41,551 bases of DNA from a virus, in the IMG/VR virus record IMGVR_UViG_3300045988_025400; one strand, given 5' to 3'. Below the pieces are notes generated by a model. The model did not search any database. It was not told where the DNA came from and saw nothing but the letters and a program-made list of their open reading frames with translations. The first letter of the stretch is position 1. Every line of letters starts with the position of its first letter. Shown here in pieces: positions 33,091-33,987 of the stretch. The translations under genes were made by a program, and so were the position numbers.

Positions 33091-33987
33091 ATGAAAAGGC
33101 ATCGTAAACTAAAGGCTGTAGCTATTTTTGTTCTCACTTTGTTTTTTACCATTATAGCGTTGTTGCTTATTCCTTCCGCAAGTGTTCCACAAGCAGACGG
33201 AACGGCAATGCTTACTTATGGCGCGGCCGTAGCTCTTATTATTGTCCCGTCCGCGTTTACAGCACTGTTTGTGTGGCTTGATAAGCGCGTTGAAAAAGCA
33301 AGCTTGCCGCAAGAGCCTTTTATTACTGCCAATGGCGAAGCCCACGATCCGATTATACCGGATGCAATAAAAGTGGTCATGGAAACCGGGCAAGCGTCCG
33401 TTTCTATGCTGCAGCGTAAGCTCAATCTTGGGTATTCTCAAGCCTTACGATTGATCGACGAGATGGAAACGCTGGGTATTGTCGGCCCGTTCAAAGGTTC
33501 TCGGCCTCGGCAAATATTGCTTACGCGGTCACAATGCGAAGCGCTTATTCCAACGCTTAAAATTGCTCGCGCAAATTCATGTTTCGCGCCTTGTGAAGCA
33601 AGCAATCCGGAAGCAGAGCTATACAAAGTAGATGGAATGGAAGGGCACGATTTTGAGTATTGGTGTGCAGACCTTCTAAAGAAAAACGGTTTCTCCAATG
33701 TTGAAGTCACACGTGGCAGCGGAGATCAGGGCGTTGACGTCCTTGCTAAATTTGGCGATGCCAAATATGCCATTCAATGTAAGTGCTATTCTTTCGATTT
33801 AGGAAACAAGCCGGTGCAGGAAGTAAATGCTGGAAAAGCATTTTACCGTTGTCATATTGGGGTTGTAATGACAAATAGGTATTTTACAGCAGGCGCGAAA
33901 GAAATTGCGGAAGCAACCGGCGTTTTGCTGTGGGATAGGGATACGCTTAAGCGCTTGATTAAAAATGGGGGGCGTAATGATGATTAA
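33091..33987 (+). CDS. membrane-anchored FtsK-gamma winged-helix / Mrr-type (PD-(D/E)xK) restriction endonuclease fusion
   Basis: Two TM helices ([20 protein letters not shown] and [19 protein letters not shown]). FtsK-gamma pattern [42 protein letters not shown]. Mrr_cat pattern [36 protein letters not shown]. Start is ATG 33091 (GGGGG RBS) rather than 33055. Confidence 0.85.
   Translation: [298 protein letters not shown]

Follow-up and report, generated by a model that had tools for sequence, protein, structure and literature searches.

What is the role of a phage gene that joins an FtsK-type DNA-binding domain and an Mrr-type nuclease behind two putative membrane helices? The question is raised by IMG/VR virus record IMGVR_UViG_3300045988_025400, a complete record (41.7-kb; CheckV 100%) of a temperate gut-Clostridia phage, whose whole analysed stretch of 41,551 nucleotides is called the window here, and by its gene at positions 33091 to 33987, which encodes the 298-residue protein P0001. 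A first-pass annotation, made from the DNA letters, had read this gene as prophage defence or exclusion cargo of the lysogeny module. We find that P0001 represents an uncharacterised and very large family of single-protein, putatively membrane-tethered nucleases with a borrowed FtsK DNA-binding domain, for which analogous systems have been published. The gene is prophage cargo (a moron), and a function in defence or exclusion of some kind is likely. For the more specific reading that P0001 would directly cleave incoming foreign DNA at the membrane, on the lysogen's behalf, we estimate a probability of about 0.5.

Domain architecture and predicted fold

All 298 residues of P0001 are accounted for by a transmembrane (TM) hairpin, a gamma domain, a linker and a Mrr_cat domain. 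The corresponding features of the window are listed here:

33091..33987, plus strand: coding sequence of the putatively membrane-anchored FtsK-gamma/Mrr_cat nuclease P0001, 298 a.a. (open reading frame, Pfam, AlphaFold2, Foldseek)
33115..33279, plus strand: predicted two-helix membrane hairpin, residues ~9-27 and 45-63 (hydropathy and AlphaFold2; N-in/C-in predicted)
33340..33522, plus strand: FtsK_gamma winged helix, residues 84-144 (Pfam 3.7e-24, 84.6 bits, cut-off 30.6)
33523..33630, plus strand: variable linker, residues 145-180 (AlphaFold2 confidence below 50 for residues 158-169)
33631..33960, plus strand: Mrr_cat PD-(D/E)xK nuclease domain, residues 181-290 (Pfam 1e-29, 103.4 bits, cut-off 21)
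33655-33657, 33724-33738 and 33775-33783: Mrr_cat motif residues E189, D212 and D216 (in GDQGVD), and Q229-x-K231

The two N-terminal TM helices, the FtsK-gamma-like domain and the Mrr_cat domain had all been named in the first-pass annotation, and each of them stands; both motifs that it quoted are present as written. For the helices the support comes from hydropathy (residues 9-27 and 45-63) and from an AlphaFold2 model, in which the hairpin helices span residues 2-25 and 43-70. This model was built from an alignment of 26 relatives and has a mean predicted local distance difference test score (pLDDT) of 85, and shows a three-helix bundle plus wing for gamma, a disordered linker at residues 158-169 and an alpha/beta core for the nuclease; the placement of the domains relative to each other is not defined, because the predicted TM-score (pTM) is low (0.46). 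P0001 has five lysine or arginine residues before the first helix, none in the 17-residue loop and three after the second helix, and the outer loop of the hairpin is short and acidic. The same positive-inside pattern is found in all two-TM relatives (56/56). The charge pattern thus argues for a cytoplasmic placement of both soluble domains (N-in/C-in), and P0001 is predicted to be membrane-anchored with its DNA-binding and nuclease domains in the cytoplasm.

The gamma domain also matches the sequence of PDB entry 2ve8 (8.7e-11), and by Foldseek it superposes on the Pseudomonas aeruginosa FtsK gamma structures 2ve9 (bound to an FtsK-orienting polar sequence, KOPS) and 2ve8 with a target TM-score of ~0.9, an rmsd of ~1.1 A and 38% identity. 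For the nuclease domain, the Foldseek matches include MspJI (4f0q), AspBHI (4oc8) and AF1548 (1y88). A weaker Pfam match to the 'inactive' NA-iREase1 family underlies the Mrr_cat match, and E189, D212, D216, Q229 and K231 are invariant across 26 diverse relatives. The median pairwise identity in the family is 17% for the anchor, 51% for gamma and 71% for the nuclease, and 11% for linker residues 145-176. Taken together, this conservation gradient and the invariant catalytic residues are characteristic of an active enzyme whose front end can be exchanged.

Pfam finds neither Mrr_N (the DNA-binding domain of P0001 being FtsK_gamma) nor FtsK_alpha or FtsK_SpoIIIE in P0001, so that the alpha/beta RecA-type motor of FtsK is absent; DUF4041, GIY-YIG and holin families are not found either. 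P0001 is therefore classified as a member of the Mrr_cat superfamily that bears an FtsK_gamma domain, and not as Mrr proper, FtsK, SNIPE or Zorya.

The start codon at 33091 is preceded by a putative ribosome-binding site (GGGGG at 33080..33084, plus strand, 6 nt before the ATG, read from the sequence). An alternative in-frame ATG at 33055 would add 12 residues and give a protein of 310 a.a.; the start at 33091 is favoured because nearly all homologues that are 94-97% identical to P0001 have 298 a.a.

A large family with variable architectures

A word-indexed search returned 2,507 relatives of P0001, and the best 120 matches all (120/120) carry FtsK_gamma together with Mrr_cat. The only name that the sources give to these relatives is 'restriction endonuclease'. 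A profile search of a 1.84-billion-protein representative library (50% identity clusters) gave 3,761 clusters at E<=1e-30 and 25,465 clusters at E<=1e-10. There are 366 relatives in species-representative genomes, almost all of them from gut Clostridia (Oscillospiraceae and Lachnospiraceae), and 233 in IMG/VR. Very close copies are also known: a human-faecal phage contig has P0001 at 100% identity, and two of the clusters that are 94-97% identical to it comprise 176 and 139 member sequences. Our literature search found no paper on a fusion of gamma with Mrr_cat (in the paper on ShosTA, FtsK occurs only as an entry of the reference list).

The order of the domains varies among the 121 closest proteins: 75 are gamma-Mrr, 44 are Mrr-gamma and two are Mrr-gamma-Mrr. 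TM helices are predicted in 98 of them (81%), either at the N-terminus, with both domain orders, or at the C-terminus. The same nuclease clade, with catalytic domains 60-75% identical, also occurs as TM+Mrr proteins without gamma (e.g. a TM2-domain+Mrr protein in the lysogeny module of the Roseburia phage Jekyll) and in fusions with RCC1 repeats. Two clostridial loci (L041, 7986-10115, and L053, 7914-9929) encode such proteins of ~700 a.a., with Mrr_cat of this clade fused C-terminally to RCC1-repeat beta-propellers, a further nuclease architecture that is uncharacterised. In another variant, a 485-residue protein (P0016) encoded at 10001-11458 of loci L005/L006, also in a lysogeny module, two Mrr_cat domains surround one gamma in a TM-Mrr-gamma-Mrr arrangement.

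We built a tree of the nuclease domain from 192 sequences and 114 columns. Parsimony on this tree gives 17 changes in the presence of gamma and six switches of domain order; the architectures cluster strongly, and if only well-supported branches are considered, no more than one or two changes per class are required. Many independent fusions, which we considered, are therefore not established.

Genomic contexts of the nuclease genes

The slot of the nuclease gene in the window is defined by the following neighbours:

32107..32478, plus strand: XRE/CI-like repressor, upstream edge of the slot (Pfam HTH_3, 6.6e-06)
34180..34791, plus strand: helix-turn-helix protein with a TM segment (HTH-TM), downstream of the nuclease gene (Pfam HTH_3, 4e-09)
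34788..36110, plus strand: large serine integrase, downstream edge of the slot (Pfam Resolvase, 7.6e-32, and Zn_ribbon_recom)

These Pfam matches bear out the earlier placement of the gene between repressor and integrase genes on the same strand. The lower G+C content that had been pointed out is also real (44-46% in the 32-36 kb block, compared with 51-66% elsewhere in the phage); it is, however, common to the whole lysogeny module and not specific to the nuclease gene.

A survey of homologue neighbourhoods, which the first-pass annotation had proposed as a check, found the same arrangement in unrelated prophages. On long contigs, seven distinct homologues each lie between an XRE repressor and an integrase, on the strand of the integrase. 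All architectures are represented among these loci, three of the integrases are serine and four are tyrosine integrases, and the ImmA/Peptidase_M78 partner of the repressor is present only sometimes. Among GTDB species representatives, an integrase is found within 4 kb (<=4 kb) of 18 out of 28 gamma+Mrr loci, compared with nine out of 52 loci of gamma-less relatives (Fisher p = 4e-5); 13 of these 18 gamma+Mrr loci have the integrase directly downstream on the same strand. On viral contigs the integrase is downstream for 13 out of 29 distinct gamma-containing proteins, and most of the others belong to one abundant phage group.

The survey also revealed a second moron slot, in this abundant phage group. 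Here the nuclease is encoded by a lone plus-strand gene, opposite to its surroundings, between the genes for a Gp15-like tail chaperone and the tape measure protein; a sister phage group has a gamma-less TM-TM-Mrr gene at the same place. The chaperone of these phages is 70% identical to that of the window, and a full-length comparison of their nuclease with P0001 gives 43% identity. In the window this position (6477-7091) is taken by a membrane moron of a different kind (P0245) and not by a nuclease. The occurrence in two slots of related phages thus marks the gene as cargo that can be exchanged between two classic moron positions.

The genes downstream of the nuclease differ in every prophage examined: HTH-TM in the window, and elsewhere a 106-a.a. 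open reading frame, DUF2513, a Zn-ribbon/Rv1352 protein, or nothing. We therefore rejected a conserved partner gene, and since no neighbouring gene is conserved, the nuclease appears to work as a single gene. It is also patchily distributed. The nuclease clade is present in seven out of 151 genomes of one host family and in ~12 out of 201 of another (~5%), and gamma+Mrr in three out of 201 genomes of the second family. On this prevalence the gene is accessory, and we rejected a housekeeping status. The first-pass annotation had said that homologues of a housekeeping kind would speak against a defence role; most homologues are not of that kind, and a minority lineage lies directly downstream of housekeeping ftsK (see below). 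Lysogeny-module or opposite-strand moron slots, exchange between related phages and patchiness in hosts are the positional features of prophage cargo, and the gene shows all of them.

These contexts also bear on the idea that P0001 is an enzyme of the lytic cycle or of DNA metabolism, i.e. that it degrades the host chromosome or acts as a structure-specific recombination nuclease in the way of gamma-RusA and gamma-RdgC fusions. In its favour, other phages have fusions in which gamma is joined to a RusA-like protein, an RdgC-like protein or a small terminase (PMC8190038), and the nuclease fold resembles the archaeal Holliday-junction resolvase Hjc by Foldseek. The gene, however, is found on the repressor/integrase strand or as an opposite-strand moron and never in a replication or recombination module, the prophages concerned carry separate RusA, RecT or YqaJ genes, and a membrane anchor fits a resolvase poorly; moreover, slot swapping and the absence from close phage relatives indicate that the gene is not part of the phage core. 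We consider such a role very unlikely.

FtsK-gamma-like domains were also seen in Gordonia, Mycobacterium and Pseudomonas phages, in genes annotated as RusA-like resolvase, FtsK-like translocase, RdgC or sliding clamp. Gamma is a widely reused DNA-binding module of phage proteins that is inconsistently annotated.

Comparison with known systems

The closest mechanistic precedent is SNIPE of Escherichia coli, which combines a TM anchor, the DNA-binding domain DUF4041 and a GIY-YIG nuclease, resides in the inner membrane, from which its soluble parts face the cytoplasm, and acts as a direct defence by cleaving phage DNA while it is being injected (Saxton et al., bioRxiv 10.1101/2025.11.03.685801). 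Without its TM part SNIPE is highly toxic through its own nuclease; among its homologues the nuclease is the most conserved and the N-terminus is variable, and about two thirds of them have TM helices (bioRxiv 10.1101/2025.11.03.685801). P0001 shares the order of the parts (anchor, DNA-binding middle, C-terminal nuclease), the gradient of conservation from nuclease through DNA binder to N-terminus, and the frequency of TM helices (~2/3 in SNIPE, 81% here). The parts themselves are non-homologous: DUF4041 in SNIPE corresponds to FtsK-gamma in P0001, and GIY-YIG to PD-(D/E)xK. SNIPE also binds ManYZ and tape measure proteins, and it is chromosomal, whereas the gene for P0001 is prophage cargo. 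Since Pfam detects neither of the SNIPE domains, P0001 is an analogue of SNIPE and not a member of that family.

By architecture the nearest system is Epona, a validated anti-phage gene of the Vibrio cholerae superintegron, which is a single-gene cassette encoding Mrr_cat and a two-TM holin-like domain (Darracq et al., bioRxiv 10.1101/2024.07.02.601686). Both are single polypeptides with two TM helices and Mrr_cat, and both are mobile cargo; Epona has no FtsK-gamma, and its TM domain is holin-like, while no holin family was found in P0001. This comparison is based on the published description of Epona, which corresponds to the gamma-less TM-TM-Mrr architecture of the nuclease clade. The statement in the first-pass annotation that no characterised system has this architecture, made there without a search, thus needs correction, as Epona has two TM helices and Mrr_cat and the family of P0001 is very large and already annotated. 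By analogy, P0001 may be regarded as a functional counterpart of SNIPE and, in its architecture, as a variant of Epona.

E. coli Mrr and the Type IV enzymes MspJI and AspBHI likewise have a DNA reader followed by a Mrr_cat nuclease with the D...QxK motif, and they include the best structural matches to the nuclease of P0001. They are soluble proteins in which Mrr_N or SRA-like domains recognise modified bases, unlike P0001 with its FtsK gamma and membrane anchor, and nothing indicates a dependence on modification in P0001. FtsK and SpoIIIE are themselves membrane-anchored and have the gamma winged helix (63-68% identical in the likely host family); P0001 has no alpha/beta motor, and without the hexameric motor the reading of KOPS by three gammas is not ensured. 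A similarity of position is seen with the Ltp/Sie-type exclusion genes of temperate Firmicutes phages, which are part of the lysogeny module and transcribed from the prophage, and which encode membrane-tethered proteins that act on the entry of incoming phage DNA (PMC3952083). These proteins have no relationship to P0001 in sequence or fold, are not nucleases, and block injection from outside the membrane.

A PADLOC comparison had also been proposed in the first-pass annotation. For P0001 the best matches are to Zorya ZorD (3e-19), PDC-S02 and Lamassu LmuA, through the Mrr-like nuclease domain, and for P0001 and ten relatives covering every architecture (11 proteins) the matches are confined to the nuclease region, with no full-length match. 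We therefore rejected membership in these systems. Zorya resembles the scheme proposed below in being membrane-linked and in its proposed degradation of DNA at the site of injection; P0001 has no helicase and no ZorABC partner.

A putative nuclease barrier at the membrane

We propose the following scheme for P0001. As a single-gene prophage cargo, it would be a nuclease bound to the cytoplasmic membrane on its inner side, where the two-helix hairpin would hold it with both soluble domains in the cytoplasm. The gamma winged helix would grip duplex DNA, and the Mrr-type PD-(D/E)xK domain, probably as an oligomer, would cleave double-stranded DNA. Its target would be foreign DNA arriving at the membrane from superinfecting phages, and perhaps conjugative or transforming DNA. 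The chromosome and the replicating prophage would be spared mainly by the confinement of the enzyme to the membrane, as in the unrelated SNIPE, possibly with added autoinhibition. The annotated idea of a membrane-tethered nuclease that acts on DNA at the membrane for prophage defence or exclusion is favoured by the slots, the patchy distribution, the recurrent anchors and the parallels with SNIPE and Epona; nuclease activity, membrane localisation, the target, and direct as opposed to abortive defence are what we infer.

Several points weigh against this scheme. Expression of P0001 from the lysogen is probable and is inferred from the orientation of the gene only. In about 19% of the close relatives no TM helix is predicted. 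P0001 falls into no curated defence family, given that the PADLOC matches stop at the nuclease. Epona is almost confined to V. cholerae, its activity was seen in E. coli only, and how it works has yet to be described (bioRxiv 10.1101/2024.07.02.601686). A gamma so similar to that of the host FtsK might be expected to steer the enzyme to the host chromosome. Finally, the ftsK-adjacent lineage described below is in non-prophage DNA and could have a chromosome-linked role.

The architecture and position of P0001 are equally compatible with abortive infection, in which the membrane would hold an inactive nuclease that is released or activated when a phage perturbs the envelope; the enzyme would then degrade host and phage DNA, and the lysogen would die or stop growing with no phage yield. 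The toxicity of TM-less SNIPE through its nuclease fits such an outcome. For Zorya, whose ZorD is the closest nuclease match in PADLOC, direct or abortive action is disputed, and E. coli Mrr, once triggered, can attack its own chromosome (PMC5435990, PMC3152355). In the prophage loci examined, however, the nuclease gene is not accompanied by any conserved gene for a partner, a sensor or an antitoxin; P0001 shows no evident protease site or means of release, and SNIPE, the nearest precedent by mechanism, is a direct defence. We regard abortive infection as unlikely.

If direct cleavage at the membrane is true, a barrier that is made of one gene and destroys DNA on arrival is present in thousands of prophages of gut Clostridia, and the spatial principle by which SNIPE separates self from non-self holds for a second protein family, unrelated and much larger, in Gram-positive bacteria of the gut. 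This would have a bearing on competition between phages in the human gut, on the host range of phage tools for the microbiome and on the difficulty of transforming these bacteria. The DNA-reading domain of FtsK has repeatedly been captured by a nuclease and, in the ftsK-adjacent copies, held at 91-100% identity to the neighbouring ftsK. This would be a clear case of a housekeeping module recruited into conflict systems, and a way to probe whether polarity motifs of the chromosome can serve as a self signal.

Origin and DNA binding of the gamma domain

Compared with the FtsK gammas of the Dysosmobacter/Flavonifractor family (Oscillospiraceae), the gamma of P0001 shows 63-68% identity to most of them, against 38% to that of P. 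aeruginosa, and is thus derived from a host FtsK. In both P0001 and the host FtsKs, residues S, R and D are found where the recognition helix of P. aeruginosa FtsK has N, R and E, positions that we take to be those of the KOPS-blind E. coli residues N1296, R1300 and E1303.

This similarity raises the possibility that P0001 discriminates DNA by motif, with gamma reading a host octamer similar to KOPS or to the SpoIIIE recognition sequence (SRS) and either sparing motif-rich 'self' DNA or targeting motif-bearing DNA. The gammas of Bacillus subtilis SpoIIIE and SftA are thought to read the same motif at 55% identity (PMC4744071), a lower value than that between P0001 and the host gammas, which also share the S, R and D residues; in the ftsK-adjacent copies gamma is kept 91-100% identical to that of the neighbouring ftsK. 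KOPS recognition, however, requires three gammas held in the FtsK hexamer (PMC3384302), and P0001 has one gamma and no motor. The fusion family keeps the DNA-facing Q, R and Y and the acidic residues of gamma, but the position aligned with R1300 is conserved in 56% of the fusions, compared with 100% of the host FtsKs, and its neighbour in 61%. In the phage lineage with the tape-measure slot, which is abundant, gamma has decayed below the Pfam cut-off with the nuclease intact, and many relatives have no gamma. The same gamma surface that reads KOPS also binds XerD (PMC3384302, PMC5052618).

We also counted octamers in the window: KOPS (GGGNAGGG) occurs seven times (5.5 expected) and SRS (GAGAAGGG) once (1.1 expected), counts at chance frequency for these two motifs. 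Enrichment and avoidance of KOPS or SRS in the phage were both rejected on these numbers. The guidance by a sequence-reading gamma that the first-pass annotation had suggested thus lacks support, given the three gammas needed in the hexamer, the relaxed base-contact positions and the lineage with a decayed gamma. Gamma most likely provides affinity for DNA; motif-specific guidance is possible but not supported, and a nuclease that discriminates by motif seems to us quite improbable.

A particular form of this idea is that a gamma so close to that of the host FtsK reads the host's polarity octamers as 'self', so that DNA lacking the motif would be cut and the motif-rich chromosome spared. The restraint of RecBCD by Chi sites is a parallel. 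If true, this would be a new kind of self/non-self discrimination, based on motifs of chromosome architecture and not on modification or spacer memory. We think that such a reading of octamers is improbable to a slightly greater degree, and it is just as doubtful that the ftsK-adjacent copies, with a gamma 91-100% identical to that of their neighbour, are the origin of the device.

Nuclease genes next to ftsK

A minority of the Mrr-family genes lies in chromosomal surroundings. In an Oscillospiraceae metagenome-assembled genome (MAG; locus L001, 7406-11266), a gene of the architecture TM-TM-Mrr-gamma-gamma directly follows the housekeeping ftsK/spoIIIE gene, among genes for ClpP, YlzJ, BacA and FtsK. 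Compared with the gamma of the adjoining ftsK, its terminal gamma has 91% identity and its inner gamma 55%. A close relative (L030, 4127-8759) has the same synteny, and its copy of the Mrr gene has an in-frame TAG. In a distant clostridial MAG (L022, JAUMVG010000022.1, 4249-10634), ftsK is followed by a gamma-less Mrr_cat gene and then by a 582-a.a. FtsK paralogue, which shares 85% identity with the neighbouring ftsK over the C-terminal part of the latter. This paralogue has lost the Walker A motif (GSGKS to GSDIS), the Walker B motif (DELAD to KELAD) and the ATQRPS motif. Its dN/dS is 0.22, and at its 3' end a stretch of 390 nt that includes gamma is identical to ftsK, with dS of 0.25-0.79 elsewhere. 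These values suggest that selection maintains a motor-dead FtsK which acts together with the nuclease, and that gamma has undergone gene conversion. These loci show that gamma was captured from the host gene and kept in step with it (91-100% identical), and that it can be supplied in trans.

Could the enzyme then be an accessory of FtsK/SpoIIIE in chromosome segregation at the septum, e.g. for clearing trapped DNA, that prophages merely picked up? The presence of Mrr-family genes directly after housekeeping ftsK in two distant lineages (L001/L030 and L022), and in L022 of a motor-dead paralogue under purifying selection behind the Mrr gene, would fit this. But the nuclease clade is found in only ~5% of the genomes of the families searched, most gamma-containing copies are borne by prophages, and the L030 copy has its in-frame stop. 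A segregation role is extremely unlikely in our judgement.

Other features of the phage genome

Upstream of the nuclease gene and on its strand, the repressor is accompanied by a gene for a 63-a.a. tail-anchored peptide, and two small convergent minus-strand open reading frames lie between these genes and the nuclease gene. Downstream, the stop of the HTH-TM gene overlaps the start of the serine integrase gene (34788-34791 region, same strand). Because the two convergent open reading frames separate the repressor operon from the nuclease gene, the latter needs a promoter of its own. Candidate signals on both sides of the gene are:

33000..33027, plus strand: weak sigma-70-like promoter candidate for a stand-alone transcript, TGTACA-16-TATAGT (consensus scan, 9/12 matches)
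34000..34030, plus strand: perfect 9-bp G+C-rich hairpin, GCCCCGCTG...CAGCGGGGC, 13 nt past the stop (read from the sequence)

The hairpin has no clear T-tract, and the same stem was flagged on the minus strand by the scan; it is possibly a terminator or a boundary of the cargo cassette.

The phage does have the three methyltransferase genes to which self-protection against the nuclease had been ascribed:

17712-18905, strand opposite to the nuclease gene: methyltransferase gene, ParB_N+N6_N4
21836-23633, strand opposite to the nuclease gene: C5 methyltransferase gene, split over frames
23956-24363, strand opposite to the nuclease gene: N6_N4 methyltransferase fragment

They are on the lytic strand, 9-15 kb from the nuclease gene, and two of the three are fragmented; most related prophage loci lack a nearby methyltransferase, and only two of them have one at a distance of up to 10 kb. 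The characterised Mrr-type enzymes cut modified DNA, and modification does not block them. As the methyltransferase genes are unlinked, fragmented and rare near the relatives, and as Mrr-type enzymes cut modified DNA, self-protection by methylation is unsupported.

Two further genes of the window have features of cargo. The lone plus-strand gene at 6477-7091, in the slot that holds the nuclease in related phages, encodes P0245 (204 a.a.), which has a zinc ribbon, one TM helix and a DUF4352/DUF5067 domain; it is flanked by the gene for the Gp15-like tail chaperone (7123-7668, minus strand) and the presumed tape measure gene (4463-6397, minus strand). DUF4352 is the domain of the mycobacterial phage-resistance protein Mpr (PMC12596739), and P0245 is a candidate for a second exclusion or defence moron in the same phage. 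The other is a 218-a.a. open reading frame without a Pfam match at 13027-13683 (plus strand), which coincides with a second dip in G+C content (44%) inside the minus-strand structural region and may be a further moron.

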